From Balanoglossus misakiensis (Eukaryota > Animalia > Hemichordata), in NCBI GenBank assembly GCA_040954595.2, contig CM082576.2:5368760-5432759 (forward strand): a stretch of DNA of 64,000 nucleotides, given 5' to 3'. Positions 16,667-43,500 of this stretch are shown here, piece by piece. A program made the translations under genes and the position numbers. Position 1 is the stretch's first letter. Each line of letters starts with the position of its first letter. The notes under the pieces are model-generated. The model was not told the origin of the DNA and did no database searches. It saw only the letters and a program-made list of their open reading frames with translations.

Positions 16667-19600
16667 CTAGTAGCATGGACCAATGTGATCAACGATACCA
16701 CTTCCTTCGGTTCCGTTGAAGAAGAAGAAGTTGTCATGCGGAGGATCTTTTCCTGAAACAGCCTGGACGAAATCACAGAGGGACGGTGACGGGGTCAATA
16801 GTTTCAAATTGTTACGTTACAATAAGTTATCAGTTGTGCGGGGTGAGAGTTACACAAGTAAAAGTCTGAGAATACTATTGCATACTTTACCTTAATCACT
16901 TCTTGGCCAACTACGCCACCAACCACAGCACATGTGGGACTCAGCTCTCCCATACAGAATCTACGGGGGATGAAGGACAACATGAATGAGAAATCATGAT
17001 GACAGAAAGGGTTCAGCATGTTTCGGATTGCAGAAGAACATAAAACAAACAGACATACATACATACACATACAGATGCAACCGATCCCATAATTTATAAG
17101 GTCCCACTGGTATACAACTTGTATATGTATATACAAATGGGACCTAAAATGTCACAAAAGTGAAAACGATTCGACCATGTCTCTTTAATCTACGCCATTC
17201 ATGTATTTAACTTAATTTGGCAGATCACAAACTTTGGAACTTTGGAAGCAAGGTCCAATTTGAAGAGGTGATGACTGAAACTCGATCAAGTCTACAGTTG
17301 ATGGATGACTATCATCCTTCACGGAAGCTAATTCTTCGCGAAAAAAAAGAGTCCATGATAGAATACTTGTCAAGTGAGGAATACTCTAACAATAAGGCTA
17401 ATACAGTGAAATTTTCAATTTGTCAATATTAGTTCCATTAGGCACAATCCACGCATTCGTAAGAGCCGTCTTGAAACTGAATAATGCAGACGCAATTCAG
17501 TTACCATGGAAATACACAAGCCATTTCGTTAACACCATCACCTTCTCGTTAACGGTTCGCGATTTTCCATTTTCTGAAAACACCATTTCTCTTTGCTCCC
17601 TCATCACACTTCGAATGTTTACTCTCAAAACACTGTAATAACGATGCCGAAGTGCGACTACATGATGTTGTACCAGAGCAATAAATGTTCATTTCAACCG
17701 ACAGTAACCTTTGGCATCAAGAGCACCCACCAACGCCTCATCACTTTAGCGTAATACAGAAATGTAAAAAAAGATCACGATTTCCTGTCTTATCACGAGA
17801 AAGGATAGAAAACTGTAAATCAAGAAAAGTGAGTAATATAAATCTGTCGGTTCTTCACTCAAGGGAATAATGAACATGGAGGCTTGTGATTGGACGACCG
17901 TAATCATCGGAGATATTCATGTATTCTGAAATGTGACATCACCTTGTGAAATCGCCGTTCACTTTGTCTTGGTTCACCTTGATCTCGTTCATGACTTCAT
18001 CTCGAAGTTTCAGCAGGCGGTCTTCATCCTCCTCCGAGTGTTGTCGGCAGGGATCTCGGCCATGGTCCTCTCGAAATTTCAGTAAAACTGGTCGAGAATC
18101 AAACAGAAAGGCATTGACAGAAATGCCATGGTAAAATATGATTTTTTATGACAACTGCAAACATGGACAAACAAGAAAAGTCTGTCTCTTCCGTTCACTC
18201 AGTGGCATTAGCACATAAAATGTATATTTCTGAAAACACAAAGGAAGAGATTGTCATGACAGTACAGACATATCTGAGTAGAAGTCTGAATAGGTGGGTT
18301 ACCAGGGTAGCCAAGAGCTGACCCAGTTGGAAAGGAATTTCTGATCTCTACAGGTCAAATGACACACATGGAGATGTGTCAAAATTCTCATTTCACTTGA
18401 GATTATTTTTCTAGGTACTTACTTTGCATGAGGAAATAGATACTTGACAACCTCTTCAAGGACTTCACCGCTTTTTCTTCCGTCCAATCAACGGACAACG
18501 CTTCTTGCAATCGGCAGTATTTCGCACTTTTCTTTGTAATGACTGTTTCGGCCACTGACACTTTGGCTTTTTTGTCCGTGTGGTTCTCTTTGGACGGTTC
18601 ATGTTTGATCACTTTGTGTTTTTCTCTGTGGGAGAGAAAAAGAGTCCACTGATTATACGCTATTTGCAATTGAGCTCAAAATAAGTGTCCAACAAATGCA
18701 TGATCAGATATAATGCAAAAGTGCAATTTAAAGGGGACGTCTCCAAGGATGCTTTTTGCATATACGTCTCCAAGGAGGTTGGTTAGCCAATAGAAGTCAT
18801 TGCATGTAAAATGTCACTATTTGTTGACTTCAAAGCAGTGATGTGTATACACACAATGGCAATGGACCTTGACTTCATCACCTTTTTATGAAGTGTCCTA
18901 ATTCTAAAATCCATTTTCATACCTGATAAATGCACACATGTAATTTATGGAATAGCTTTGTATTAACAGTGTGACTGTATACATTGTAACTGCAGGGACG
19001 ACTAATTTCGGAAGAAGGGTTTTGTAGTGCCTTCAGTATAAGATGCAAAGAGATCATAGATTTGAAATTCCCTTTTAGGAAGTCTAAATCCCTTTATAAA
19101 CTGTGGTATACACGTAGGAAGCACAACGCCGTATTTCACGCAGGGAGCTGGCAGTAAAGGGTGTGCAAAACCACGCAAAACAATCTCGTTGGAAAAACAC
19201 AGAAAAAAAACAATCAGTACTCACTCAACATAGTTGTGCTCAACAAGATCAGAAAACATGTATCCGTAATATCCAAAGACGTCACAGGCAAAAAACTTGA
19301 CTTTACTTTCATGGCAGATCTCGTTGATTTTAAGCAGTGTTTTACGATCGCAGCATGTGACACACACAATGTTGAACTTCTGGAAGAATTCTTTGGGTTT
19401 GTCACCGACACTACTGGTGTCGACCAGCACTTCAACATTTGGGTTCAGTTCTTTGGTGCTCTCCGCGGAAGCTTCTGCTCTCTGGAACGGAAAAACAAAA
19501 ATTGTAAAACCTCTGATAGTGACACTTTTCAAAAAAAAAAGATATGACTGTGGGATAAAGCCAAACAAAGTTACGAGTATCATGTGATTCTCGTTACTCA

Positions 19601-21816
19601 ATGATATCTTTACGTTCAGTGCCAAATTTGAAATATTTTTTACATTTGCACAAATTGTAGGTCGATGACCAGTTTTATGTCAATACATGTAGGCACTGAC
19701 CCACCCGCAGAAGAAAAAAGGTGTATTTTGCAATCATTACTGACCACAAAAATGCAAAACCTGCAGGATTATGAGAATGCTGAAATCCCAGATAGGCATG
19801 TTACAATATCAAACCCCTTGCACAACATAAAGTCCCAAGGTAAGAAACAGTCACACATGCAGAGAGATATTATGCACCTCACCATTTTGCAATTCAAGAA
19901 AGTAATCTGAAAACTCATTATTTCTGGGAGAAATATGGGTATTTATCTATTTTGAAACGGCACCATCACCCACATCATTATATCCTTTCCTAACTGCAAA
20001 AACATTTGTCGCAAATACACATGAGAATAGCTTTATACTAGTATAGTGAGGATGGCTGGCACCTTGGGGCCAATAAATTTTCCCCAACAAAAGCTCAATC
20101 TCTGAGACACAATTTGTGGACATTTCATTTCTCTTTTCAATTACAGACACAATCAATTGCCCACTGTGGTCATGTTAACACAGTTTTATGTACAAACTCA
20201 CAAGCGAACATCGTTAAGGGATGGCCTGACACGTTGTAGACCTGGCCTACACAATTTCATATACACTGATGGTACATCTAATCCCGCAGTTTCAATTTCT
20301 AATATGCTAAATATTTTTCACACTTTGTATACTAAATGCTATTACTTGTTTTGCATTTAAATCATGTTGAAACACACATTTTTCCAGTCTATCAAGAAAT
20401 CATTAGTATGCATAATTAGTTGACACTGTTGAAATTAAGTTCCTAGGTCCACTTAAATTTCACTGTCGCTGGTAAAAATGCATGCTCCCGTGCTATGTTT
20501 TTTCCAGTACTTTTCAACAACAACAATAATAGTGATGTGTGTTAATAAACTACTTTTTCACCATGGTTAAGGGTTCTTCAGCAAATTTGAAGAAGAAATT
20601 TTAAGCAGATACACAAAACAAAAAAAGATCAAAAATGAGACAAAATATGCAGCTATAAATGTCCAGCCTTTCAGCAGGATAAAACACTGCATATATGTAA
20701 GGTGTATTGTGAGTGTGTGAAATATGTAGTTGATGTTGAAGACTTATCATGTACTGTACTTACATTCTTTCCAACAGAATCTCTTGTCACAAGGAATTGC
20801 GAGAACGCATCCTCTTCTGTCACATTGGAGTCGTCAAGAAGAGTAATCGACTTCAAACCAGACAGGACGACATTTTTACAAATCTCTGCACCCACACCTT
20901 TCAGTCCCACAAGCAGCATTTTAGAAGCTCTGAGTCTAGAAAACCACAAAGAGAAAGCATCCCAATTTATGTGGAGGGTCACGCACAATGTTTACATAAA
21001 TACTAAAATAGACAAAAATCTTTCCCCAGGCTACACTACGTACTTGCTGCTTTGAATCAGAGCCGCATTTGTACAAGCCTTTCAAAGTTTAGTGTTTGGT
21101 TTCTCAGGGAAGTTATTAAGCATACATGTATCTGCACATAATTAGCTACGTCTGGTTTCGCTACATGTGCATGACCAAAACAGCTACTTCTGTACGCAGT
21201 AAGTTTTCTATAATTTTTCATACTATCCACATCATGATGATGACGTAGAGGGCGCCACCCTCAGGTGTGCATGAGTGCATGTAGGGCATGTAGGACAGTA
21301 GTAGGACTGGCTTGCGTATATTTCCGTGCAATAGATATTATACATGTACATCTACTTGTATTGCTGTTCTGTCAAGATATCCGTAAGAACGATATAGGTA
21401 TATTTCTAACGTATCATAAACAGCAGGCTTGTCGAAACAGACAGCTGTCTTTGTGATGAAGTCCTTGTAATGCAAGTTGCAATATCGACTTGACGGATCT
21501 GGTTCTCTTAGTGGACACGACTCTACCCCATGGCAACGATACCATGGCAATGAGGGTGAGTTAGGGTTAGGGTTAGGAGGGTTAGGGGTGGCAATGTGAG
21601 GGTGAGTTTAACCCTAACCCTAACCCTCCTAACCCTAACCCTAAAAACCATTGTATCGCCCATGGGGTATAGTCGTGTCCACTAAGAGAACCAGATCCGA
21701 CTTGACACATCTCGTACTGCTCACCTTTTCTGAGCATCCAGCCCCCACAGACGGATCTGTCTGTCGTAAAGAGCCGCTTCATCTTCAGTAATTGCGTCGT
21801 TCTGTTGATCAGTCAT
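16667..21816 (-). CDS. SAE1: SUMO-activating enzyme subunit 1 (Aos1), 344 aa
   Basis: Exons 21725-21816, 20764-20935, 19225-19481, 18423-18625, 17943-18087, 16891-16960, 16667-16762; all introns GT-AG with consistent phases (1035 nt). Motifs: ITEDEAALYDRQIRLWGLDAQKRLR, LLVGLKGVGAEICKNVVLSGLKSITLLD, ELSPTCAVVGGVVGQEVIKAVSGKDPPHDNFFFFNG. Confidence 0.97.
21495..21698. mobile_element. 204-bp palindromic MITE containing TTAGGG/CCCTAA repeats, with 8-bp TSD, in SAE1 intron 1
   Basis: TIR GGATCTGGTTCTCTTAGTGGACACGACT is perfectly mirrored at the right end. Direct repeat GACTTGAC at 21487-21494 and 21699-21706. Confidence 0.9.
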
Positions 21817-25170: not shown

Positions 25171-28100
25171 TTAAAACTCTGCAATGCTGTCGGCTCTTCC
25201 GCTGTCGACTGTCTCGTTGGTGTGGCCCTGCTTCTCGCGATCGCCGTCGTCCTCATATTTCCCCGACTTGCAAGATGGCGACGAGCACCCACAGATGACG
25301 CCGCAACACCAGAATCCGCAGCCTTTTGACGTGCTCACTCCGATGTCGACAGAGGGTTTGGTCTGCGTCTTTGCAAGATCCAGCTCTGTTTGCAACTGGA
25401 AAACGGTGGAAGGGATATGGGTGAACAGCAGCGTAGTGCACTGCAGTACAGTGTGGTGTGGTGAGGGTAGTGCTGTGTTCTGTTGTGTAGCGTACACACA
25501 CATGGAAAGTGGCAGTCTTCACAACTTACTTTTGCTAAAATATTGAAGTTTTGTAGTCAGCAAAAATATATTTTAGTAAATCATTAGGTTTTGTGTTCTA
25601 CAGCTTTACAGATACTTTATAAAGGCCAGGGGCGACTAAATTATAGCATATAGGGCCTAGGCCTAGATGCAAAATTTGCATCATGTAGTGCCCATTCCTA
25701 AATTCACCTCACCGGGAATCAGGGATTTAAAGACTTGAATTATTGTTTGTCTTATCCAAAGATGTGATAATTTACCGAATCCGTCAAAGCTGGAGGATTT
25801 TGTTATAGATTAACTTTCGTAATTCCTGCCCAGTGTAGCAGTTTGAAACCGTATTTTGATGAATCGTGGGGATATGAAGTAAAACGGCAGGGGAGATAAA
25901 AATAATGATAGATGGTCGTGTCAGTAACATTTAGTCTAGTCCTTCAGAAACGCAAGAGAGAAGCAACATGTATCACTCCAGATTATCATGATAATGTAAA
26001 CTGAGTGGGCGAATTGCTAGGTGAAAACGGCTATCTAATATACGCACATCCCCCCCCCCCCCCCACACACACACACACGGCCCCCAATGTTCTCACACTT
26101 TAATGTATAGCTATAGGCTAATCACTACCTGTTGAATTCTGTCCTTCAGTTCGGATTGCTCTTCCGCATGCACGTGTTTTGAAGATTCATAAGAATGGTT
26201 GGTGGACTGTGCTTTGTTCATGGTAGAAACTGGCTGGCCCTCAGGATACTTCTTCACGGATAAAATCTTGAAGGACATAAAAAAAAGTTAGACAGGAAAT
26301 TACTTCTCCTTGCTGGTTCTAAGACGACTAACATGGCAATTCGCTGTTTCTCTTCCTTTGGTAATAGGCTATTTTTTTTTACGAAATTGTTTCTTCGCGT
26401 GAAGTCAGTTCAATTGGCTTCGGCTCTTCATCCGCGTGCCCCCGGCAAGGACATCTTTTGCGTACGTATAGCAGTATACCTGGAATGCCCGTTAGCCATA
26501 CTGTGTCGTGCAATCGATTCCATGGCTGCTTCGTCAACTCACAATACAATAACCAGAGTTTTGCAATCATCGAGTGGGTTATGTAGTAAACTGAACGACG
26601 TGACAATTCATATTTCTCGTATGAAAGGACACTGTTTCCAATTTCAGCACGGGATGCTTTGGTGACCTAGCCTTTTGGCATTTGGTGGAAAGTCTGCTTA
26701 TAACGACATACATTATACAGACACAATTAACCTTCTCCGACTGTGATTTGATATCCATGTGTTGAACCGTTTTAAATTGTGATCTATCAATGCGCCTAAC
26801 CAACGTACCTTAGGCACAAATACAAGAAGCAGTGTTATCGATGTACAGAATATATCGATGGCCGACAGAAAGCCAAACAATGCATCGGCGTTGTGGTTTA
26901 TCACTGGGCTGACAGCAACACCAATTACCGATAAAACGATGACGTTGTAAACACTCATTCCAATATACTTGCTGTCGTTCAGGGCAGGTATGGAAACCTG
27001 AGGTAAATACAAAAAAATGTTGTGTTTTACCGATTGCAACTGAGGTTCGCAGGGCTATTTCCTTCAAAATGGAAATAACACTTCATTGAAACTCTTCCTA
27101 ATTCGGGCTCTTTAGGAGTCACCGCTCGTCAATAATAGCGAAGACTTCGAAAGTCTATTACGAGTATGCGAAAATTGTGTTAGCAGGGGGAAGTGCATAT
27201 AGCAATTGCTTGTCGTGTAATTTTCTTCTCAATAGGGTACATTCTAAACAGTGTCATTGATGGAAGTGCACCAAATGTTCCACGGTTATACTGAATACTC
27301 CAATCCGTGTCTTAGAACTGATACAGGATCGGAATAACATTCATAGACAAATCTCGCAGTGACGTGCACGGGTCTTTCACGTAAACATTTCAGTTGGCCG
27401 AGATATCTGCGATCAAAAGTGCGTTGCCAGAAACCTTTCACGCAACCCCGATGTAGAACAACGTTATCTCACAAAACTCTGTCAATGTTTTGCTGTGATA
27501 TGATCATATAATCCCATTTATTTGGTGACGTATGGAGGTATCCACGGTGGCGGCTCGGTTACCTTTCTAGTTTCCCAGGCGAGGAAAGTGCCGAAGATGA
27601 GGAGCAGGCCTTTGTAGGCATACAAGGCACCGAGCCAGTAGATGATGTCATCGCAGTGGCAGAATTCCACGATGGGTTGTATGATCTGATTCGGCACTAC
27701 AGGGTCATTCTGCAATCAAATATGACAATTTAGCGTTCGAACAGATGTTACTAACTTCAAGAAGTCAAGCAATCCCATCAACCTTTCATACAACTTACCT
27801 CTGGGTGAAGCATTGTTGTCGCTCGTCGAAAAGGGGAGAGTACTTGCCACACGGTCAGGATACTCACGTCAATCAGAACCAGTATTAATATCATGATGAA
27901 TAACTGCCTGTCCGTCACAATCTGAAGAGAAATCAGGGATCTATTAAAATGTTATATTAACCAAGGGGTCTTTGGATAGGTGGGGTTGTGTGTGATTTGG
28001 TGGGTGGTTTTTTGGTTGGGTTTGGGTGGGTGGGTGGGTGGATGGCTAGGGGTGGGTGGGTGGATGTGGATGGATTTGTGGACGGATGGCATAGGATGGG

Positions 28101-31100
28101 AAAGGAATGGATGGGATGGGATAGGATGAAAACTGTGTTGGTGATCAAAATGGCGGCCATACGTTTTACGACGGTAGTGATGACAACTGTACTCTGACAC
28201 CTAACGGAACACTTACCCTTCGTTTCGGCGTTTTCAGCGTGGCTACTCGGTGAACCCTCCAGGTCTTGCTAAACATTGCCCCATAGGCTACGACAAACCC
28301 CACCGATATGACCCAAGCACGAATCTGAAAATGAAAAAAAAGCTATACAAGTTACTGTTTTGCATGCGAGACATTTGAAAGTCGAGTTCGAGTTACAACG
28401 TCAACGACAACTAAGTGAGCAATATAAGAGACAAGTCAAAGGAGATTTGAATATCATATGCCATTGGCAGCGGAAGTCCGGACGAGGGATCAGAATATCT
28501 TTACAATATTTTTATAACTCTGAAATCCAGTTTTTTTTCCTGTTTCCCAGCAGGTGTATGCATTTATATCCGCTTCTAAGGATCACTCCTTCATAACACT
28601 CGTCATTACCTGACAAATGATTTCAAATGTCTCTGGGCCGATGAACGTGTTGTCGAGACCGAAGAGAAACACGGCTGCATAGACGAGAATGCTTCCCAAG
28701 ATGATGATGTTATTCAGATTAGGGCTTGACATCTTCACGTATCTGAAAATTTGGGAGAAAGGGTGTGTTTAATATAGGTAGCTGGGCAGACAGACAGACA
28801 GACAGACAGACATACAGGCTTCCAGTGAACGAAACAGCTAGACCATGAAACTACGCGTAATCATGATCCTAGTTTAGTACGGTAACAAACTAGTTAATGC
28901 ACAAATGATGTCTACCCGTGGGCTGGGATTCGTTTTCCTTATTGCCGGCCGTATCTTATTTCGATGCAAATAGAACATATAAATACCAGCGTGCATTATT
29001 GGCTATGATAAACGATTCGATTACAATTATGATGTACGTCTGTACTGTAATCGTAGTGCGCAAGGCAGAAATTCAATATTACTCTGCCCGTCACAAATGA
29101 AATACAGGAAATATAATTGCAGTAAGCTTATAGATCACGAGATGATAAAACACCCACGATTTAAAATTATGTTTCGTTTAAAAACGAACAGAAGAGTAGA
29201 CAACACAACACAACGTCACGACGAAAAAAGACAAAACAAAACAAAATCTCAGTAGCTTTCCCCGTGATGCATTCAAGTGGAACATCATCACCAAAGGTGT
29301 AAAATTACCTCTGCTCCCTGTATTTCACATTGAAGCAGAAAAAGAAGCAGGCCATTATTATTCCTAAGGCAGCCATGGTACACATTGCGAAGTAGAGGGC
29401 AGGAGTTATGGCTAACTTTCTCTCTATGGTGGTGACGATCACGGTTGGCGTATGATCCAGGGGAACCTTGCCTCCTAGAAAAATAGGACAAACATATGAA
29501 TACATTGGGATAGCTGCGTGTCCCAGGGATTCGCCAGCATTCGTTTCGTTATAGTGCACACGTTTGAGATTTTCCCGACCTACAGGAGAATATAAACACG
29601 GAATTCTTATAAAAAGGAACATGAACCCCTGAATAGTGCTGCAATAGTTTAGCAGCAGTGGGCGGCGGCATTGACCGGAAAGTGTTATCTGGGAATTGGA
29701 AGAGATGTTTTAACATGTTCACTGAAATGTTCATCTCTTAGGTGTTGCATGTTGCTGTATAAGATGCGCATGTACGCATGTGAACATTTAAATCTATGTC
29801 AATTAGTCGTCAGTTACTATACTACAAAACACTTTCAGTGACCGAAAACCGAATATGTGTGCAACGTCACGTACAATTTTGAATTTGTGAAAATGATAGC
29901 AATTTAATGGTTTTGCTGCTCTGCTGATGTTGATGCGGTGGACAGGACAAGACAGCATTCATTTGAAAGTCAATCGGAAAAATCAAACAAAATAAGGCGA
30001 TTTTTGAGACATCGTACCAAAAATCGTGTACAGCCGGTACGTGCATTGGAATATTAAATTGCTTTGGTTCATTGTCAATGCTGAAGGCAGCGATATCATA
30101 TACAAGGGACATTGTCGGCTACGTTTGCGCCTCAAAGACTCGGGAAGATAAAATTCACAATCAATCATCCGGAAAGCAGTGCACAGTCTTTTAAAAGCGA
30201 TGATTTATCACCATTAATAATCCTATCGTATTCCCATTGTGCATTGAAAACTATGAGACGCTTTAAATCCAGGCTGAAGCGAATCACGAATTTACTCGAA
30301 GTGGCGCATGCGCTTTGATTTCCTTTCAAATTGACATAACTCATAAATTCTCTTTACGGAAGTCATCACGTTAATTTGACTTTCCATCTCCGATGTTTTT
30401 CTGTTCGTTGTGATTTGACCTTTTCAACTGGAACAATAACACACATAGACGGCGAGCATGTGCGTTTGTGAACTCCTGGAAAGACTCTAGAAAAAGTTTT
30501 GTCTGCAAACTCACCACGCCACTGGAAGTTGGATACATAGTCCAACACATTTCCCCTTTCAGTGTAGAGCGCTACTTGCTTTTCATAATATTCTGCAAAA
30601 AAAGAATAACAGAGGGGAAAACGCGTCAATACAAGAATTTCGTTTTTATCTGTGCGTGCATTCTGTAATTCCGTCCGCTTTTCGCTCAACAGAAGACTAC
30701 TGTTCAGTCGAAATACATCTGTTTACATTGCATGCAGTTTCTCATACTAGTACATGTAGTTCATGTTTATCAAACGAAATGATTGATGATCGGGGGATTT
30801 CACACACCTGCATTGCTTTGGCAGATAAAGCCGTTCCTTTGTTGACAGCTGACGGGGCGCCATTCTCCGGCGTGGGTGACAATGACGCAGGTTCCGTTCG
30901 CGACCTCGAGATCCGGTGTAGCGGAAGCAATTTCACCGCTAATGGTGGAGTTAGACCTGAAGGATTTGCCGTCCAGCCACTTAAACTCCCCGTCAACAAA
31001 TGTCAAACCGATAAACCTGACGGGGAGGGAGGAGGGGGGAAACAAGAAATACATGTGAAATTATTTGATATCTAAAGGGTGAAACTTAATCTTCTGTACA

Positions 31101-34100
31101 GTCGTGGTTATCAACTTCCCGGACTGTAGCTATTGAGGTCCGAATATTGATGTCAGAATGCATATATAGGCGCCACGGTGGCTGTAAACTAGTTCGCTAG
31201 TCCATACATTTACTCGCTATCGGCAACTTGTTGGTGCATTTTTATTAATATCATTTTATGGCGTTGTTAATCATTCCATCATAATTCCACCATAGCACCG
31301 AAAGCAATGCAAAATGATAGGTTAAAGAGTTACTCGGTCATAATGACGATTTTATCACATTAAATTATATTTCATTATAGCAATTCGACACAGCCATGCC
31401 CGACAATGGGTCAGATATTGATACACTGGCCGCAGGGAGCATTAAATAATAGTAATAGACACCTCGGGAAATTTCTGTTCGTCTCTTTCATAAAGCATGA
31501 TAAGAAAACCGCTCACGAACACACCTATGCAAATTTTGCCACATTACCACGACATGTTAAAAATTAGCCAATCCAAGTTTTCGCCTGGATGGCCTCGCGG
31601 AAAAAAGCACGCCACTGAATGGTCAATCGTAGACCTAGACATGACCCTTTAACCATATATGGGTATATGTAAATAAGGGGTGATTGTAATCCTTCCCAGT
31701 ACTATGGTGGGGCACAAGACAAAAATTATGCTAACCATTTCTCGACGACGCTCTTTTCGGTGTTTGCTTTAGTTGTCAGGAATTTCCACCGATCTTCAGT
31801 CATCATTGTTGTCAGGTCACCACCAGATGCACGGCACCAATCACGCGCCGCGTTAAAATTCTCGGTTGCATCACTTATGTAATAGCACACGCCATTGGCT
31901 ATCTCCCATCCATCCATACAACCGGCTTTCAAGAAGAAGAAGAAAACACAAGATGGCCGTCGGTTGGTCAGTGAAAATTAACAAGGAAATTTTTAAAAAG
32001 TACGAGAAAACGGCAACCGTTTGTAATGAAATTATTTTAGTGCAGCTTTTCAGATCAATTAAAATGCACAAATAAGTTTACATTGGAACATTTTAATTGT
32101 AGTCTTGCCCGCGTGGAATCCTCTCTGAACTAGTCGCATGACGTGATCAATGCACACCACACGCAAGCCAAATTTGGATAAGAAATTTGATTCGGTCGCA
32201 TGCAAAAATAAGAGTCCATCCCGGCGCCAAAATTACGGTCTACCGGAACATGAGAAAAAATGACTTTTATGCTTTCGAATGAACAAAGCATTATGTTCCG
32301 GTCTTGATAGTTTTTCATGGATACCTCCGGAGGATACATGTGCAAATACCGTGTGTGGGGCGTTATGTAAGACTCACTCGCACTCACGGATTCATAAATC
32401 TGATAAACAATGAAAGGTGTTAGCAAGAGAAATCACACCGTCACATCTATTCAAGGATTTGTTTTGTATAACGAAGCGCTAATGAGCCGTAATAATGACT
32501 TTGATAGTCGCCACTAATTGCCAAACAAGGTCTTTGTACAGTTTGACTCGATCCCCAGAGCGAAAACACTGAACACAACCTGTTGCGTATATTCTCGTGA
32601 CTGGTTTGTAGATCCTTCGCAGACGAGGATGTGTGTTCTGTAACTGTATACGCATTTTATCCGATTCAGAAAACGCAGCTGCTTTTTGACAAGATGATAA
32701 TCTTTTCTGCTGTAAGCGTAGGAGGCCATTTTGCAGATGTCACGACTTTAACGGGAATCGCGTACAATTGAATTATACTCACGTTGAAGTTGTTCGATTT
32801 GCGTAACACCCACTCGGTCTCCGTTTTTGAAACTCACCGGTCCCTGAATTAAAAAACAGAGAGAATATGTATATGCGTGTGAATGTGCTCAAGTGATGTC
32901 TTTTACACCTAAGATTGTTAGAAGTACACGGAATACAGTAGGTGGAATACATCCCATATTTCAGTATGATTGGTTCGCAAAGATCAAACCTTAGAATGTG
33001 ACAGACATCTTATTTCTGTACGCAGAGTACAGTAGATACGAGTAACTTGATGTTAAATTAAAATCGGCCAAAATATTTTGTTCTCATCTATTACTGTACA
33101 CCAACTGATAGTTTGAAGAAAATAAAACATTCTGTTCAAAGGACAAAACAATGTGCCAAATTCTAAACAGAAATCTGAGGAGCAGAAGATTGGTTGGTGT
33201 CCATGCAGAACCAAGGGTAATTTCGCAGAGACTGTGGGTGCAATTCACAGCCCCATATCTCGTTGCCAAGCTTCAAGAAGACACTTTCTCTTGTCAAAGA
33301 ATAACTCGATTATTACCGACACTCCCAGAAAATCGGTGTCGGTCAACAGATCAAAGAAAAGCTGGCTCATTTCGGCATCGTCGTACGTGAAGTCCTCCAG
33401 TCTCTTCAACTCGCCATCAGAGAATCTCCGGGTCTGCATGATTCTGGAGGCCTTGTCGAGCATCAGCGCCACTGTCCACGTGGCGTCGTATCCATACGGC
33501 GCCAGTCCATTCCAAGCATAATTCCGATTTTCTGGTCTTCGCAATCTTTCCCGAAGCAAGCTCTCGTATTCCGCAGACGTCTGGAAGAAAAAAATTGACG
33601 TTGATTGATGATTTTTTTGCATTTAACGGTAATTCCGGTATCGGTAATATAAATTATGAGTGAACATGCCCTGGTAGTTTTTATTACACGGCAATTTGTT
33701 GTGCCGCTGTTTACTTCTTTCCCAAGAAATGACGTCACGTCCGACGACATTCTCAACAAGTTGTTTTCGCCCTTCCCTCTTTTTATATTATAATGACATT
33801 TACAGATCTTTATGGATTCATTTTGTCATAATAACGTTTCTTGCGGATCCACTAATTTAAAATTAACTAACACTAGATATAGATTCTGCTGATAGCAACA
33901 AATGCCGGGAAGGTGACGTGCACGAAGCCCAACCATCCAGTACAACTGTAACCACCGTTTTGCGTTGATGAATTCAACACAGATCAATCTTCCTCTGACA
34001 CGCTATCATTTTCTGCTCTTCACGTGATTATCATTGACCCCGTCCATCAATCAAACAGACATCGGCAACGCTGTAGTCTGTAAGCCATATTCCTCTCTCT

Positions 34101-37100
34101 TCAAAAAGACATAATCCACCGTCATTACGCATGCCTCTGATTGGTTCGGAATGCTATAGGACACCTGATCAGATTGCATGTGTCTTTTCAACCCTGTACA
34201 GATGTCAGTTTTATTCCTGGCACAAGATACACACACAAGGACAGTGTATTACACAACATTTGGAAATGGACATACTGTTTGTACAGACGATATTACGCAC
34301 ATGCGCATAAGACGATCGTCGACCTTTATCGATATAAACAAATCAACGAAGTCTTTCGACTCTAGGCTCTTTGGAGGTGATAACAACATTCTCCGATTCA
34401 AAAAGTCATAATAACAACCTTACTATCATTAACAACCTTACTATCGAATTAAACAATGTTACTGACCGCCAGTAAGCTTGCTATCAATGTGGATGAAAAC
34501 GAATTATATGATTATTAAAACCCCATCAATGGCTAATCACCACTAATGGCCAACTTTCCATCAATGGCAATCCGATTTATAGTGCAGGCTCTTCCTCATA
34601 TCTGGAGTATCTATTGATTAAAACTCATCTTGGCATTCGCATATCAACTGCACCTCTAAAATCACCCCTAAAATGAATATGGAAATAATCTCACGTTTTG
34701 TCCCTAGATCCATATTAATGCTTCTCTACAGCACGCTTATCTTCGACATTTCGGTGTATCGACACTGGAATCTGAATAAAAACTTGACCAAAGTTTCCGC
34801 TTTCATTACCTTCTCTCAGTTCACGACCGAAATCACAACCAAACGTCCCCGAACTGATAATTCTCAATATTTACAAATTGATGAAAAGCTCCAGGTGCAC
34901 AATCGCTGAACATATACACTTCCATTTTCCTTCCCATGACATCCACAACCGACTGTCCAACAGTGGGGACTACATAATTCCACAACACAAACTAAAACTG
35001 GAACAAATGCAGTCCAGGCACTCCGGACCGTGGCAACGTGAAGCTTTGAAACTCACACCATCCATCCGCCACTCAAGCATCCCACAAGGCATTCATTCAA
35101 ACAAAAACGCTACCTCAAGGTCAAATATTTCACTACAATCGTGTACTCACTATTCCGGCGACGGTTAATTCTGGAGACGTGCTCAACTGTAAACTCTCAG
35201 TCGAAATGTACTGCGATCCTTCGACAGCTTCCTTCATCTCCTCCAGCGTGCAATCCACATACGGGTCTTCAACTTCCCACCATTTTGTTCCGTACCAGCC
35301 AATCAGAATCCATACATAGTCAGGTCCCGTCATGTCTTGTTTGTAAGCCTTTGCATCACAATTATTTGTGTGTGAGAGAGAGAGGGAGAGGGAAAGGGTG
35401 AGAGACGGAGCAGGTAGTTTGAATCGAGACAGGCAGGCAGACACACAGAGATTTTTCGTTGATTGACTGACTGACTGACTGACTGACTGACTGACTGACT
35501 GATTGTATATATTGTATATAATGCATATAATTACCTCACAAAACATTCTCCTGGCCATATCTTCATACATATTGCCAACAATTATTTTGGCATCCCCCTT
35601 CTGAAACGGTAAGATCAACCCAACATTCAGTATCTGACGAGATTTGTGTGAAATATAATTATGTATGTAACCGGGGACGCTGATTCGAAGTCAAGTACGA
35701 CGCTGGTTATTCGTTTCCATAACTCGGACACTTGCAGACAGACACACAGAGAATACAGGCGCTCAAACCAACCATCATATGGTCCATGGGTCATTGAGTG
35801 GCTGAGAGATAGTGCGTAAATGAACGCCCGAACGAATAGGTGAGCAAGACTTTTGACTAGTAAAAGGTCAGGTTCTTTTCCAATGCTGTATACAAAACTT
35901 TCATATGACGAAAAAATACCTACAGCCTATACTCATTGGTCAGAGCGGCGCCACTCAGGTATTTAGTAAGCCATCTGCTTACTAAATTTGCTCTCTGAAT
36001 TTGGACTAAAATGTCCGTAATGGATGGATTTGCGAGGGTTACAGGGTATAGTTTGGTGATCGTTTAAAGGAGCAAAAAGTTCCCTTTTCAGTCGCATAAT
36101 ATAGTCTCCAGTTTCTCGTTAACGTGTCCTATTAGTTACAGCCGTGAGATGTACCAGAATCATCATGCGTTATTTACATTACCTTGAGATTTTCAATTTG
36201 ATTCTTGGGGTTTTCTGAGAAGCTCTCCGATTTAATCGCCGAGATATTGTTCTCTTTCATCAACGTTAGAAGGTTGTCGATAGCCTGGAGCAAACAAAAA
36301 AGTAAACGGTTGAAAAGAAGAGAAGAGTATTTCTCTTGGGGAAATCACGAAACACGGACCTAGCATCCAGAGAGCACTTACGCCGTAAGTAGTTATAGAG
36401 TCTAAATGTCGTTTATAGAATCATTATTTATGAATGAATTGATCTTCTGAAGTCGAGTAGAGTTGGATTCGTAAACAAAGAAAAGCCCTCAGATCATTAT
36501 CACCAGATGTCACATCTTTAAATGCATCCTGTCCAGAGGAAGTAAGCTTGTTGACGTAATGGCGCATTCATAAAATAATTGTCTACTACTAGCCATTCAA
36601 TTATATGTATGGAGGGCTGAAGCATATAGACAGTAGAAAGTATTTGAAGTATACTGTCTCTCATAATACACTAAATATCAGTCAATATCAAAATGTGATA
36701 TTTGGGAATTCCTGGAATTTCTTCGTGAATGACAGCACGAATTGTGTGGAAGTAATACATTTTGCCGATATATGGTAGGATTCGAATGACTTTCTTGAAA
36801 ATTTGCATTTTAGATCCCCGAGTCGGCTTACTTATTCCTCTGAGGCGAATCTGGTTGAAGTAACTTCATGCCAGGACGTTATTGCATTGCGACACTGGTC
36901 ACTGTCATCAACATTTACGGGAAGAAGCGATGATAGAAAAATCGACAAAAAGTGATTACACCATGGTATCATGGTTTGATAATTGTTTTGTTTTCTGACC
37001 TTGGTGGCAGAGGGTGCTTCTGCAATCTGAGAACTTGAACAGCCGTGGAAGTTCATAGCTGCTTCAGAAAGCGAACGAAGTGGCTGCATATTGTACTGAC

Positions 37101-39868
37101 CGCATAGTGAGGTTATGCATATAGATCGGAAATAACTAACGGAAGAGAAACGTCAACCAAAGCTGCGTGTCTCTTATACTCTGCACACGCTTATACTTTT
37201 TCTAAGTTCTCCGGCGGTATTGAAAGTCTCCGAACACGGTGAATGGGACTGATTTGGCAGCAAATCTGCGGGTGTTTTGAACTCGCAAGAGATAGATTAC
37301 ACGTTGAAAAGGGCAAAGATCAATGTAATCAGACGTACCAATGAAAACAGGTCGTGATTCTCGTGTATGGTGGCAACCCTGTCCCAACCAAAATCCTTCA
37401 TCAGTCGTATTCTGGCAGGATTGTAAGCGGCGTCCGGCAGATAAGTACGGAAAAACAGCGGATATTGCTCCCGGTTGGAAAGAGCGGACGATGCCGCTGA
37501 ATAAGACAGCTGTCGTGAATAATACCGAGAAAAGTAAACGGGTTAAAAACGCGCATATCAATGAAGAAGTTTGATTAGTGAAACAAAATATGCGTAACCT
37601 TTATTGGTGGCTGAAATAACTCCTTTTTTTCACGATCGGATAATTTCTGGCCTTAATACCGTTTATATTCACAAAATTTTGGCGATCACTCTATACCTTA
37701 AAGCTGAGATTATCGACGAGACTTGTACACAATTTCTTTGGGACTGCACCTGGGCAAGAAATAGCTTGCTCGATTATGCCCACATTATGGTATATACATG
37801 TATTCGGGTGCACGCCATAAAACGCAACGACCAAAATCTATATTGACATAAAATGTGTGATCGGAAAAACAACACAAAATCAACATAGGCCTAATATACG
37901 AGCCTTTTGTCAAGCAATCGTGAAAGGTCGTTACTATAAACGGCCTGATAATCTGACCGACTATAAGCGGAATTCCCCCCCCCCCCCCCGGCGTGCCGAG
38001 CTGCCGCGCCGCCACCGAGGATTTGTAATTAGTCGCCGATACACAGCTTACCATAGCATAATTGCTTCGAACAAAATACGTGTCAAATCAGTGACGAGCA
38101 CTCACCGTCACCAGGTGCCAATGTGTGGCGGTCTCAGCGACCGCTTGTGCTCCTGTACTACACGGCGGCCCCAACACCATGAGCTTGGTAGGGTGATGGT
38201 AAAGTTGATCGAAGAAAACACGAGTTGCAAGGCCGGAGTCACACTGAAAGAAGAAACAAAATGACAAGGACATTTCACGAGAAGATCTTATGACTGAAGA
38301 TAGCATCATGGTGTTGTTTTATAAGTCATGATTTTAAGTTGTTGTTGTTTTTTCGGGCGTATAGCAAGACGATATTGAATAGATCTTTATTTTATGCCAA
38401 GATTAAGGATTTAATTTCGATTATTGTAGTTCTCTGCGAAAAAAAATACCGATTGCCCAGTGACTTCAGGGCAACCTCGTAATATAAAAAGGGGGACAAA
38501 GTGGATTCCATTTTTTGGTAGTTTCTGCAAAAACCTATACATGTATCTCTGCTTGGCGATTTCGGGTCGCAAGACATTAAACAGACTATCTTCAAACAAC
38601 TATGGGGAAGGGAAGTATCGTCCCCGCTGCATTGGAGTCTCTTTAGGCAGATAAAAATACACTTAATATTTAACGTACGATTCATCTGCGAAAACAGCTG
38701 GCGTTATTTGGAGTTGTAATGATGATGATAGTCTCTCTTACTTTCTCTCTCTCATTATTTCACAATTGTCACGTTGGTTCGAGTGTGAGTAAAAGGTGAA
38801 TCATCTTGATGTTAGTTCTATGGAAACCCCCCTGGGGACCTGCAGCAACTGTTGTTAATCTACCGAAAAAAAGCTCATGGAAAGCAATAATGAAAGACCG
38901 TCACAGCTATTTCAACAAAAATGGGCTTTGGCTGACATGATCAACCACGCTGAAAACAACTAAAATATCACCTTTCCATGCAGTTCCCATATTATTAGGC
39001 TAATATTTATTTTGATGGCCCTAACCGTCAGATCAGCTGATGCATGAAATGACGAGATCCGATTTCGTGAAAAGTTAACTTTCACGTGAAAAATAACCTC
39101 TTATTTCAAACCACTATAAGCTTAACTGTTTCAACATGTTGTGTTTTAGTACGACAATTTCCCAATATGAATGCCTTTGACAATTTTGTTTTTAACCCTT
39201 TGGAATTGGAGCGTTCTGGCTTCCGCCCAGGAGAAACGGTAGAATGAGTTTACATTGTAATTATAACCATACGCACACGTTGATTACAAACCTTGATTAG
39301 GTGGATCTATGTTGCAGCTAGCACCGTGACGAGTCCCGCTCATTTGTAAACTCATAAGCCTAGTTATTCAGTAATGCGTTACATCGGAAGCTTGTACAGA
39401 TACGAATCGACAGACATACAGGCAGGCAGAACGACTGACAGACAGGCAGACAGAACGACTTACTGACTTACTGACTGACTGACTGACTGGCTTGTCCGAG
39501 AGACGATTGTTAATGTCGGGGTACGCTATGATATACAATGTAGGTAGAACGAGGGATCAGTGTCAAAACCAACTCACCCGCGTATCATTCCACACCATTC
39601 GTAGGTCGTATTCTGGAAGGATGTCATCTCTGGCATTGATTTGCTGAAGCGCCATTTCCACAGCCGGCAGTATACCGCTGCCGTCCCAGTTACCTCCAAG
39701 CGAGAAAAAAGCACCGAGATAGATCGCCGTCTTGTTAGGGTTTCTTGCGCCATCCCCATCACCGCTTTCAGTGGTGTTTCCCGCCGGGAACGGCGTGGTC
39801 AGGCTCCGCGTCGACCACGCAGCAGAGCTCAACACGAGCAGCGTGCACCCAAGTGTCAAGGAATACAT
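25171..39868 (-). CDS. GABA-B-receptor-like class C GPCR (Venus flytrap + inserted C-type lectin domain + 7TM), 998 aa
   Basis: 19 exons: 39578-39868, 38106-38243, 37339-37509, 36183-36284, 35535-35600, 35151-35348, 33317-33580, 32783-32843, 31736-31925, 30808-31016, 30515-30592, 29309-29474, 28610-28742, 28217-28324, 27799-27921, 27563-27709, 26809-26997, 26129-26266, 25171-25395 (2997 nt, all GT-AG, frame intact). Signal peptide present. VFT motifs: PAVEMALQQINARDDILPEY, LSNREQYPLFFRT, YVWILIGWY, APYGYDATW. 7TM motifs: [67 protein letters not shown]. Confidence 0.93.
30808..31925 (-). other. C-type lectin-like domain (two exons) within the GABA-B-like gene
   Basis: Exons 31736-31925 and 30808-31016 give PGCMDGWEIANGVCYYI...FNAARDWCRASGGDL...WFIGLTFVDGEFKWLDG...CVIVTHAGEWRPVSCQQRNGFICQ, a long-form CTLD with 6 Cys and the WIGL-type motif. 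Confidence 0.9.
35461..35502. repeat. (GACT)n microsatellite in an intron
   Basis: Directly visible tandem repeat. Confidence 0.9.
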
Positions 39869-40243: not shown

Positions 40244-40505
<262 letters not shown>

Positions 40506-43500
40506 TTATATCACCAGTCTCTAATCTATATCTCTTATTTCTGCGATAATGGCACATTTAATAACGCCGGTGAATCGCCTGCAATCATGTCTGTGTGATA
40601 TTTTAGAGGAAATTACAACGCAGACGATGAACAAAAACACACCCTACGCATTTCCTGATTATCCGGTACTGTCTTCTGTCCAAGAACAAGTGGACGGCTG
40701 CAGACATTTGAATGTTTTGAATTACCTGAGGCCTGAACCTGACGCTACCACGCTATACCGCTTTACTAATCAGCCCTTCGATACATGACGGCACTTTCGA
40801 AATTACCTGGCTTGCTTGTAATAATCATGACTTACGCTGTGTGCGTAGGTGTCTCAACCATGAATTTCACCCTTTATAGGACAAAAAGGCAAACCAGTCG
40901 GTTTGTTTGGCAGTTTGGAGTGGCGCGCTGGCTTCCTGCTCCTTGCCAAAATCTGTAAACAATAAATAATATCAATAAACAGTTATTCCCATACACAATA
41001 TCCATAAAGATCATAAAATTTAAGAAAAGGAAACCAATATCCTTGAATTAGACTGAAAATAGCTGCGAAACTAATAATCTAGGTAAGCCTCAAAATTAAT
41101 TACGAAACTGTTTATCAAATGGAATAGCTATTATAAGGTTTCATGCATCTACAAACTATCATTACCTCACTTAATTAAACATGACAGTGATAAACCCTGT
41201 AAGTAGCGTTCAGACTTCACATAAAGTTCCTGCTACTAAGAGTTTTTGATTTGCCCCAAATAAGATATTGATATTTTTTTATCACTGATGGAACATCATA
41301 ACAAGGCCCTTAGGACCCCGCAAGCCAAATTGCAAAGGGATAGGTATCCGAGGAATGACGTTCTTAACTAGAAATGACATAAATGCCCCCAAAATATAAT
41401 TTGGCACATCATATAGATATACAGACAGACTGACGCCGGTTGATCCATAACGCCCACATGGGTTTACCAAACGGGGAGCTAATCAGTTGGCGGGTCACGT
41501 TCATACTATGACATTGAGATAGTTTCTTGGGCAAGCCACGGCCCCATCGTTATGTTAAGATATTTGATTTCCAAATTCAAGGAGTTCATTTCACTTGTCT
41601 TTGGTGTATGCCACAAGATAGCTGGAAACCGTCCATCCAGCTGTCCAAACGGCAGTTTTGGAACTCAGTTTGTTGTACAGAATGGGATCTCCGCAACGCA
41701 CGGCCAATTTATATTTGAACTGGTCATTGACCTATGAACACTAAAACGAAAGACCTGCAAGAGATGCGACAATGTGAAACGCTTCTAAGGGACCCAGGTT
41801 CTACATCTAAGATAAAGCACACACACTTCAGAAACAGGAGATCGACCACACGGTTATTATTACCTTATGGCCGGAGATTCCGAGGCTGTCCACTTGTGTT
41901 AGAGTGAGCACGCTTTACAGTAGACTCATGGCGGGTTGTGACAGACATGATATACGTGGAATGGCTGACAACTTACAGGAGATGCCAGGTTCAATCCCGG
42001 TGGCTGGCGGAGTCGGCAAGTCGAGTCCAACAACAAGTAATACACTAGAAAGACTGCTAACTGCAGTGTATCTTGGTTTTGGTGACCATACACGAAGAGA
42101 AATGGTGATTCTATACATACGAGTGAAAATGGTGGCTCCTCTGTAGAAACGGGGATTGCACGTCACACGAATAGAAGCGGAGTAACAAATGGGTACAACG
42201 AGCTTTATCCGTAACAGGACGGTTTATTGGTGCACTCGATGTAAACAACAGGTGCCGCACTTGTAATATGCAGATTCACTTGACCAGCAATCACGTCTCG
42301 ACAATGTACGAGAGATGAATACCTAGGCCAATCCCTTCCTCAAAGTTTGCATGGATATGAAAGCATACAGACATTTGGATTTATCAGATCATAGTCACAT
42401 CACCCACATGTGCGCTATGCATTTGCCTGATGCCACTAAAGCGTGCATTTTAGGAAACTTTCAATTCACCAAAATAAAAAAATCTGTACAATTGTTTCGT
42501 AGTTGTTGTGTACTTTTTATTTGCCCATAAATTCACATGTGCTTGGCGTTTATGCGGATTAGTGTCGACATGTTCTGAACCTTCTTTGATGTAATCCCAT
42601 TTAATAGAAACAGTCATTTTTTCTTGTTCTATTCATGGTTTCCATCCCCTTCTTAAGCCAGGCTAGTAATTGAGGACAACACTATATACTCTTAATTCGA
42701 CACTGCTGATGCTTGTGTGACAAATCCAGTCTTTGCTCTGAAATCAGAAAAGTCCAAAGGAAGACTTCGATAATCTTTTTTTTCTCGTATGAACGACTAT
42801 GAAAGGCCGCTTTAATGTTTCCAAAGATGTTATAAGTAGCTTATAAATGCGAACGTTTTGAAAATCTCCATCTTGCAACATGCTTTTAAGTAAAACGATG
42901 TAAAGGTTTTCCCAGAAGCTTAACATGTTATGGATTGGATTTGTTTGGCAGTTGTGTTCTCCTTAAGAAGTGTCAATCAGCTGATTCGTTCAGAAGTCCG
43001 TCGAAAGTAATGCACCGTGAGTGAAATCAAAGTTAGTCTTTTAGTCTTTTTTTCGATGACCAGTCACGTTTGAATCACCTCAGTTGACAAAAGTGATTAT
43101 TTATCATTTTATTTTTGCAATTTTCAAGAAAAGGGCGAATCGTTGCCAGGTTTTGCATTGCTAGTTTTATGAGTATATTTGCAACTTTTTATTTGTAACA
43201 TGAAACTATGTCACTAGAATAAAATATTATCTAGCTATCTATTTATCTATCTATCTTAGTGTCTCGCATTCACCCCGCATGCGCAATACTAAGTCAAGAG
43301 GATAAAGTTTAAATGCGTCACAGGGAATTAAACCCAGTGGTACCACAGGAAACAGATAGCATGTTGTTTAATATTTTATTAGATATTGTTTGGTTGTTAA
43401 TAAAACTAAATTGTAGTATTTACCCCCAAATCCCCTCTCAGTGGAGGTAAGAAATCACGGGACAATGTATACCAAATGTAAGCCTGTGGCCGTACTGACT

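Follow-up and report, generated by a model that had tools for sequence, protein, structure and literature searches.

A GABA-B-type receptor gene of Balanoglossus misakiensis with a C-type lectin-like domain predicted within the last hairpin of its flytrap

The closest described relatives of the receptor analyzed here are the GABA-B subunits GB1 (human 4MQE and 6WIV_A, Drosophila 9JR0_A) and GB2 (human 6WIV_B and 7EB2). The GABA contacts given for GB1 in the available text of PMC12499500 are W65, S130, S153, H170, E349, Y250 and W278, and the accessory domain listed for this subunit in a table of PMC8687355 is an N-terminal sushi domain. GPR156 (8IEB, 8YJP), a Gi-bound homodimer according to a figure legend (PMC12499500), matches our receptor in its GABA-B-type seven-transmembrane domain (7TM) with an E of 1e-35, but this likeness is confined to the 7TM, with no match to the Venus-flytrap domain (VFT) or the C-type lectin-like domain (CTLD). 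Odd invertebrate paralogues with two flytraps or an extra C-terminal domain, some of them lacking binding residues, are known among the Nematostella GABA-B-like receptors, for which the available text (10.1101/621060) mentions no lectin domain. Adhesion GPCRs with Lectin_C (class B, 'GPRX'; available part of PMC8687355) also carry a CTLD in a GPCR ectodomain; however, they belong to a different 7TM class and bear the CTLD as an N-terminal bead, whereas here it lies within another domain. In calcium-dependent C-type lectins (the scavenger receptor C-type lectin 2OX8, DC-SIGN) and in calcium-independent CTLD proteins (dectin-1, NKG2D), the CTLD is terminal and not internal to a GPCR ectodomain.

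We analyzed a stretch of 64,000 nucleotides (the window) in which the receptor gene occupies positions 25171..39868 of the minus strand. Read from 39868 to 25171, its 19 coding exons, all with GT-AG ends, form a single frame of 2997 nt (998 aa and a stop), and the initial annotation of one intact 19-exon gene was thereby borne out; the junctions were read from genomic DNA by a check of splice sites and frame. The product comprises a signal peptide (recognized by eye), the VFT with the inserted CTLD, a stalk, the 7TM, a predicted coiled-coil helix and a Cys-rich tail. No second GABA-B-like gene was found within the window. Exon 1 (39578..39868; aa 1-97) encodes the hydrophobic N-terminus and the start of the VFT with W61 (GB1 W65). 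The VFT continues through exon 2 (38106..38243; aa 98-143) with C125 and S126 (GB1 C129 and S130), exon 3 (37339..37509; aa 144-200) with A149 and Y166 in place of GB1 S153 and H170, exon 4 (36183..36284; aa 201-234), exon 5 (35535..35600; aa 235-256) with Y246 (GB1 Y250), exon 6 (35151..35348; aa 257-322) with W274 (GB1 W278), and exon 7 (33317..33580; aa 323-410) with L348 in place of GB1 E349. The acceptor of exon 6 has a poor pyrimidine tract (0.44), yet it is the sole AG within 65 bases and preserves the frame.

The outgoing strand of the last VFT hairpin is encoded by exon 8 (32783..32843; aa 411-430), which ends in phase 1, and the returning strand with the end of the ectodomain by exon 11 (30515..30592; aa 564-589). 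Between them, exon 9 (31736..31925; aa 431-493; phase 1 to 2) provides the first half of the CTLD with C433, C444 and C461, and exon 10 (30808..31016; aa 494-563; phase 2 to 1) the second half with W494, C537, C551 and C559. The pair comprises 190 + 209 = 399 nt or 133 codons and is entered and left in phase 1, and the junctions 32783>31925, 31736>31016 and 30808>30592 proposed earlier are all exact in the spliced frame as deduced from the DNA. Removal of both exons leaves an open frame of 865 aa, while removal of either one breaks it. The membrane half follows with exon 12 (29309..29474; aa 590-644; stalk and TM1), exon 13 (28610..28742; aa 645-689; ICL1 with R645 and K648, equivalent to GB2 K510 and K513, and TM2), exon 14 (28217..28324; aa 690-725; TM3 and ICL2 with R712, equivalent to GB2 R577, and A717 in place of F582), exon 15 (27799..27921; aa 726-766; TM4 with D729, equivalent to GB2 D594), exon 16 (27563..27709; aa 767-815; ECL2 and TM5) and exon 17 (26809..26997; aa 816-878; ICL3 with L821, equivalent to GB2 L686, TM6 and TM7). 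Exon 18 (26129..26266; aa 879-924) begins the cytoplasmic tail and its predicted long helix, and exon 19 (25171..25395; aa 925-998 and stop) encodes a Cys-rich motif with a tryptophan common to the clade described below. Ten of the 13 pieces scanned gave a Pfam match at E up to 0.1. The expected combination of ANF_receptor (exons 1, 2, 3 and 6), Lectin_C (exon 9, E 0.009; exon 10, E 1.8e-6) and 7tm_3 (exons 12, 13, 16 and 17) was recovered on separate exons.

The same domain order is present in the Ptychodera flava protein P0003, which speaks against a nested gene or a chance assembly. In an alignment with human GB2, residues 64-432 and 562-926 of P0003 are matched by two segments that follow directly on each other in GB2 (chain 393 to 395). 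An AlphaFold model of P0003, in which strands 424-433 and 560-570 form the entry to and the exit from the CTLD (with a block pLDDT of 79-92), and its overlay on solved structures agree with the earlier proposal that the CTLD takes the place of the turn in a hairpin close to the VFT's end. Residues 45-596 of the model share the flytrap fold of the GB1 ectodomain (4mqe_A; Z 49.5, rmsd 2.2 A, 406 aligned of 409 residues), and the hairpin is predicted to be prolonged as a two-strand ribbon into the CTLD, leaving the flytrap whole. Since the full model reaches a pTM of only 0.53, it does not fix the orientation of the CTLD. Structural look-alikes of the CTLD reached TM 0.52-0.61; a feature search of the ESM Atlas with the junction region gave no usable match. 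Self-pairing of ectodomain pieces received weak support with a score of 0.41 (best control 0.11), at least 72% of contacts agreeing between runs and a partner pLDDT of at least 86; because a GB1b homodimer has been solved (6w2y), this signal may come from likeness to solved dimers. Of 78 solved complexes 51 pass the mark applied, as do 2 of 108 mismatches, and scores of up to 0.60 include only 5 solved complexes and all 4 passing mismatches.

With respect to the ligand pocket, alignment to GB1 showed that C129 and four of the seven GABA contacts (W65, S130, Y250 and W278) are kept, while three are lost (S153A, H170Y and E349L). H170 and E349 occur together in none of 33 CTLD-bearing rows, and the A/Y/L trio is also present in acorn worms, sea stars, a brittle star, a sea urchin and a sea cucumber. 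ANF_receptor matched P0003 with an E of 6e-52, and the flytrap scores 319 bits to GB1 vs 225 to human GB2; the conserved specific pocket of the clade is missing from the Drosophila GB2 row. Since the pocket retains S126 and the aromatic cage and trades the polar contacts of GABA for A/Y/L, the ligand might be a carboxylate whose other end is hydrophobic or a methylated ammonium, e.g. a betaine or a hydrophobic amino acid, which is a guess and a rather doubtful one.

The class C 7TM (7tm_3, E 1.5e-59) has GB1 and GB2 as its best 15 PDB matches. Best of all is GB2, as the membrane half scores 317 bits to the human protein vs about 216 to GB1, the latter obtained as the total of 531.7 minus about 316 for the flytrap. 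Among the 11 G-protein contacts of GB2 listed in the available text of PMC12499500, 4 are identical, 4 conservative and 3 changed (F582A, K586T and K593T); mutants in the Drosophila equivalents of F582 and K593 showed impaired coupling (same source). We consider it likely that the receptor couples to a G protein through its own 7TM. It differs from GB1 in the three pocket positions, the 133-aa insert and GB2-like cytoplasmic loops, and from GB2 in the GB1-like pocket, the three contacts and the CTLD. The stalk is short as in GB1 and lacks a cysteine-rich domain: NCD3G (nine-cysteine domain) had no match in 3 of 3 proteins, and there is no Cys between aa 560 and 620. The GB1 tail carries an arginine ER-retention motif; no R.RR or RR.R motif is found in the tail encoded in the window.

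Database proteins with a CTLD at the identical site came from 3 hemichordate and 12 echinoderm species, and from none of 25 rows of other or unnamed taxa. An insert of more than 100 residues at this site was seen in 33 of 75 aligned rows including that of the window, all named ones being hemichordate or echinoderm. In a tree of 30 rows calculated with the CTLD left out, the clade holding the CTLD-bearing rows had an SH-aLRT of 100, and the GB1 rows, including Ptychodera's own GB1 (P0037), formed a separate starred clade; the single GB2 row was that of Drosophila, and no vertebrate GB1 or GB2 was among the rows. Grouping with Drosophila GB2 was absent (AU p 0.035 for the flytrap, 0.10 for the membrane half). 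The phylogeny suggested in the initial annotation yielded, on aligned sequences, a wide ambulacrarian clade apart from GB1 and apparently also from GB2; a sister relation to GB1 was neither supported nor rejected. A GB1/GB2 recombinant was considered because of the bit scores, which place the flytrap nearer GB1 and the membrane half nearer GB2. It was rejected because separate trees run opposite to this pattern: the flytrap falls weakly among GB2/GB3-like rows (23), the membrane half beside GB1 (87, unstarred), and AU tests against these groups gave no significance (0.15 and 0.26). Retained ancestral states account better for the mixed similarity. The wide clade and the altered pocket had been overlooked at first, while the insertion site and the intact, conserved gene stood.

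Databases carry these proteins under automatic GABA-B subunit 1- or 2-like names. A paper on the Saccoglossus GPCR repertoire (Gene, 2013) would be the likeliest place for a prior mention. In agreement with the initial remark that no characterised receptor of this architecture is known, no publication with this layout was found in the literature searched, i.e. in the available parts of PMC12499500, PMC7042368, 10.1101/621060, PMC8687355, PMC3971589, PMC7618208, PMC11957666, PMC6267866, PMC9759900 and PMC12467107; the layout could still appear in the supplements of PMC7042368 or PMC3971589 (architecture figure S3).

The insert shares the CTLD fold with the lectins named above, including three disulfide pairs by pattern and the WIGL-type tryptophan. 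Its six Cys are invariant in 31 of 31 CTLDs and the WIGL-core W is kept in 30 of 31; Lectin_C scored above the Pfam cut-off in P0003 and P0004, and the structural matches place it in the C-type lectin-like domain superfamily. Calcium-dependent sugar binding is defined by EPN or QPD in the long loop together with WND in strand 4 (available text of PMC7618208). In the CTLD of the window EPN and QPD are missing and WRP stands where WND is expected, the QPD and WND of 2OX8 aligning to EIA and WRP. Across 28 CTLDs we found WND in 0, QPD in 0 and EPN in 1, that one outside the loop. The loop region measures 6-39 residues and is almost missing in four sea-star proteins (6-16 residues). Because the paired motifs are missing and the loop is shortened in these sea-star proteins, canonical glycan recognition, as proposed at first, is unsupported. 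The available text of PMC7618208 also documents CTLDs binding proteins independently of calcium, and dectin-1 binding glycan without calcium, so that absence of EPN/WND is compatible with calcium-independent glycan binding.

The explanation we lean towards, with somewhat more than even confidence, is an orphan GABA-B-type receptor for a non-GABA small molecule, whose CTLD would dock onto a partner protein independently of calcium. The symmetric phase-1 exon pair would have been shuffled into the gene once, before the hemichordate/echinoderm split. The receptor would probably act as a homodimer or as a pair from within the clade, in which flytrap closure would activate Gi/o as in GABA-B, and the CTLD would position or tune the receptor and not be its on-switch.

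It seems unlikely that the CTLD is itself the true sensing site, at which a microbial, glycan or protein cue, bound without calcium, gates or triggers signalling in a two-input receptor. Its retention through the whole clade history with invariant disulfides would suit such a role, as would the predicted ribbon to the flytrap, the multiplication of CTLD-bearing rows in the brittle star (12) and in the sea cucumber Holothuria (7), and the far faster divergence of the CTLD between the window protein and P0003 (46% identity, vs 88% for the flytrap, p 7e-21; 87% for the 7TM). However, the calcium-site motifs are missing, the loop nearly vanishes in four sea-star proteins, 3 of 4 close species pairs show equal conservation of CTLD and flytrap, and among eight brittle-star paralogues the CTLD is not more divergent than the flytrap (0.83 vs 0.85), while pocket residues vary. 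Rather improbable is a passive passenger or spacer in a surface turn, with at most a steric effect and with its folding kept because misfolding would wreck the receptor. This would fit the conservation limited to core residues (8 of 133 columns reach 90% in 19 rows, and outside the fold core no surface is conserved) and an exon pair that can drop out in frame. In the annotation of some clade members from brittle stars, a simple hairpin of 7-8 residues takes the place of the CTLD, which may thus be dispensable, and the tree requires three state changes. Yet the cleanly removable pair was retained in all five animal classes sampled, and every site-spanning RefSeq isoform inspected keeps the CTLD in one unbroken alignment each, although skipping isoforms might sit in other clusters. 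The conservation pattern of the CTLD sequences is equally compatible with a fixed partner, a changing one or a passive domain.

An alternative GB2-like partner, which would pair with canonical GB1 and give the GABA receptor its G-protein coupling plus a targeting domain, appears quite improbable: the GB2 likeness of the membrane half, the lost GABA contacts, the long tail helix (905-927 in the P0003 model) and Ptychodera's own GB1 favour it, but the flytrap is closer to GB1, a specific pocket is conserved that Drosophila GB2 lacks, and the receptors do not group with that subunit. Scarcely credible is a nested gene or prediction artefact skipped by the receptor mRNA. The frame would survive such skipping, but 15 named species share the in-frame insert at this residue, in RefSeq as well as in submitter annotations (KAJ and PIK accessions), the acceptor tracts of the CTLD exons are strong (0.89 and 0.94), no start codon lies in frame upstream of exon 9, and read-through beyond exon 10 meets a stop after two codons. 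A more speculative and doubtful extension is a two-input detector, whose flytrap would read a conserved non-GABA small molecule and whose CTLD would recognize a partner on a cell surface, in the matrix or on a microbe, with binding and coupling both in one subunit; a sea-cucumber subgroup of 4 proteins, which has lost the G-protein face and kept the pocket core and CTLD, would then have re-evolved the GB1/GB2 division of labour.

A class C flytrap is predicted here to accommodate an entire folded domain in its final hairpin, where it has been retained from before the separation of echinoderms and acorn worms. Since a GB1-like pocket and a GB2-like cytoplasmic face appear in a single chain, the receptor offers a test case for binding and signalling by a lone GABA-B-type subunit, which bears on how the obligate heterodimer arose. 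Given the automatic names, echinoderm 'GABA receptor' counts probably include receptors that do not bind GABA, and the brittle-star and sea-cucumber expansions are candidate chemosensory receptors. The pair of exons 9 and 10, removable in frame, provides a natural comparison with and without the CTLD. By their sequences, members of the clade were encountered here only in acorn worms and echinoderms; a metagenome scan gave one locus (L001), which was dropped as tblastn of the full protein did not match it. A search of 1.84 billion representatives added, within its best 150, six more insert-bearing proteins, five named as sea cucumber and one without a taxon name.

The receptor gene of the window, a GABA-B-like class C receptor with a C-type lectin-like domain (CTLD), was rebuilt by coordinates as 19 minus-strand exons from 39868 to 25171, all with GT-AG boundaries, and the joined exons gave a 998-residue frame with a single, terminal stop. 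Exons 9 and 10 (31925–31736 and 31016–30808, minus strand) both matched Pfam Lectin_C and together comprise 399 nt with phase 1 at entry and exit. Skipping of both exons leaves an 865-residue receptor frame open, while skipping of only one breaks the frame. The exon coordinates and the 133-residue length of the CTLD in the initial annotation were reproduced exactly; the splicing as given is that predicted from the sequence and the orthologues.

Human GB2 aligned with P0003, the Ptychodera flava orthologue, in two stretches which are contiguous within GB2. In an AlphaFold model of P0003 (23-row alignment, mean pLDDT 74.9, pTM 0.53), strands 424–433 and 560–570 lead into and out of the CTLD, and residues 45–596 were overlaid on the GB1 ectodomain (4mqe_A) with 406 of 409 residues aligned (2.2 Å; Z 49.5). 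As this overlay extends across the whole segment, the sequence past the CTLD is predicted to complete the Venus flytrap, which makes the CTLD, according to the model, a true domain insertion. The Atlas's own model (residues 380–600) matched C-type lectin clusters with TM 0.52–0.61. We consider the architecture to be real with hardly any doubt, while the mechanism proposed for the receptor, as stated, is only slightly favored. The layout is conserved and apparently undescribed: no description was found in the mostly open-access literature searched. Already known are the component parts and the proteins themselves, which carry automatic names in RefSeq and UniRef; the three Pfam families are precomputed for database proteins with this layout.

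A search with exon 7 yielded 3 proteins out of 142 candidates (Ptychodera, Saccoglossus, and Asterias), all three with the insert. Two broader searches provided 74 usable database proteins of more than 300 residues, with one guanylate cyclase match excluded. Among these and the window protein (75 rows), the insert site held more than 100 residues in 33, a partial insert in 2, a turn of 7–11 residues in 37, and a gap in 3. All named insert-bearing rows were from hemichordates or echinoderms, and none of the 25 rows of other or unassigned taxa in this set carried the insert. Including Lytechinus pictus and Diadema setosum, added via cluster look-ups, 3 hemichordate and 12 echinoderm species bear it. 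The best 150 rows of a profile scan of 1.84 billion representatives comprised 13 multi-CTLD proteins and 137 class C-like rows, 11 of the latter with a CTLD; the 10 named ones were all ambulacrarian. No crinoid or amphioxus member was present among the named database rows. The flytraps of the window and Ptychodera proteins are 88% identical. Seven CTLD-bearing members came from Holothuria leucospilota (P0023, P0029, P0033, P0038, P0114, P0122, and P0137); all list an identical length for the longest contig (75,826,135), which suggests a cluster on one chromosome.

With the CTLD columns left out, the insert-bearing proteins formed one clade (FastTree support 0.985 for the flytrap and 1.0 for the membrane half; SH-aLRT 100 in a 30-row tree). 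The trees, in which all subunits were non-vertebrate, separated the clade from GB1, of which Ptychodera has its own (P0037), from Drosophila GB2, and from an arthropod/mollusc group, which we take to be GB3-like. The clade also includes several proteins from brittle stars whose annotations show a plain turn in place of the CTLD. The 30-row tree required three changes of insert state, read as one gain and two losses, although the apparent losses may reflect exons missed in annotation. By bit score, the flytrap is nearer to GB1 (319 vs 225 for GB2) and the membrane half nearer to GB2 (317 vs about 216 for GB1). A GB1/GB2 recombinant origin was without support in separate trees of the two parts.

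Seven GABA contacts of GB1 are named in PMC12499500, of which the window protein keeps W65, S130, Y250, and W278, whereas S153, H170, and E349 are replaced by A, Y, and L. H170 and E349 occurred together in none of the 33 insert-bearing rows and were both kept by GB1 rows. Thirteen proteins share the A/Y/L trio; their sources are acorn worms and sea stars as well as a brittle star, sea urchin, and sea cucumber, and for two of the proteins the identity to other members checked does not exceed about 39%. This pattern would point to a conserved ligand other than GABA. In the brittle-star expansion, these three positions are variable.

The six CTLD cysteines were invariant in 31 of 31 rows. According to PMC7618208, canonical sugar binding requires EPN or QPD together with WND; among 28 rows, WND and QPD were found in none and EPN in one, outside the loop. 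In an alignment with the true lectin 2OX8, its QPD and WND are matched by EIA and WRP. The loop region is 6–39 residues long, conservation at 90% is limited to 8 of the 133 columns, and each of 19 rows has a net acidic domain. Compared with the flytrap, the CTLD has diverged faster in 7 of 10 species pairs; three close pairs and a set of eight brittle-star paralogues show no such excess. Calcium-independent docking would be the best reading of its role; that the CTLD is itself a sensing domain, or that it is passive, would be less probable alternatives.

PMC12499500 also lists 11 GB2 residues contacting the G protein; the window protein retains 4 of these, has conservative substitutions at 4, and differs at the other 3. 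These last include F582, replaced by A, which occupies this position in 26 of 33 rows. Coupling to a G protein is likely but not certain. A divergent subgroup (P0122, P0149, P0171, and P0183, three of them assigned to sea cucumber) lacks the GB2-type contacts K513, R577, and D594, yet keeps the CTLD with its six cysteines and the pocket core residues W65 and S130. Self-pairing was weakly supported by a prediction without an alignment, which scored 0.41 vs 0.11 for the best control, with contacts agreeing to at least 72% across runs and a partner pLDDT of at least 86; 5 of 78 solved complexes and all 4 passing mismatches had passes this low, and the score may reflect likeness to the already solved GB1b homodimer. 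Exon 19 (25395–25171, minus strand) encodes a Cys/Trp-rich motif beyond the tail helix, possibly a lipid-anchor site, whose strict pattern was present in 16 of 31 clade rows vs 0 of 13 others.

Elsewhere in the window, a single-exon ORF of 127 aa (11048–10665, minus strand) encodes a protein with a hydrophobic N-terminus, an acidic spacer, and a KR site, together with a C-terminal peptide that contains eight cysteines. It had no Pfam match at E 0.1, and its best three Atlas matches, to be taken as a lead only, were eclosion-hormone clusters (scores 0.75–0.77); the product may be a precursor resembling that of eclosion hormone but with one cysteine pair more. A ThiF exon (19224–19679, minus strand; Pfam E 1.7e-9) belongs to a downstream E1-type gene, presumably SUMO-activating subunit 1. 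The upstream neighbor, in divergent orientation, contains a sodium:solute symporter exon (48266–48859, plus strand; E 1.5e-7), and a tetranucleotide microsatellite of about 66 copies (40244–40506) is located 376 bases upstream of the receptor start codon.
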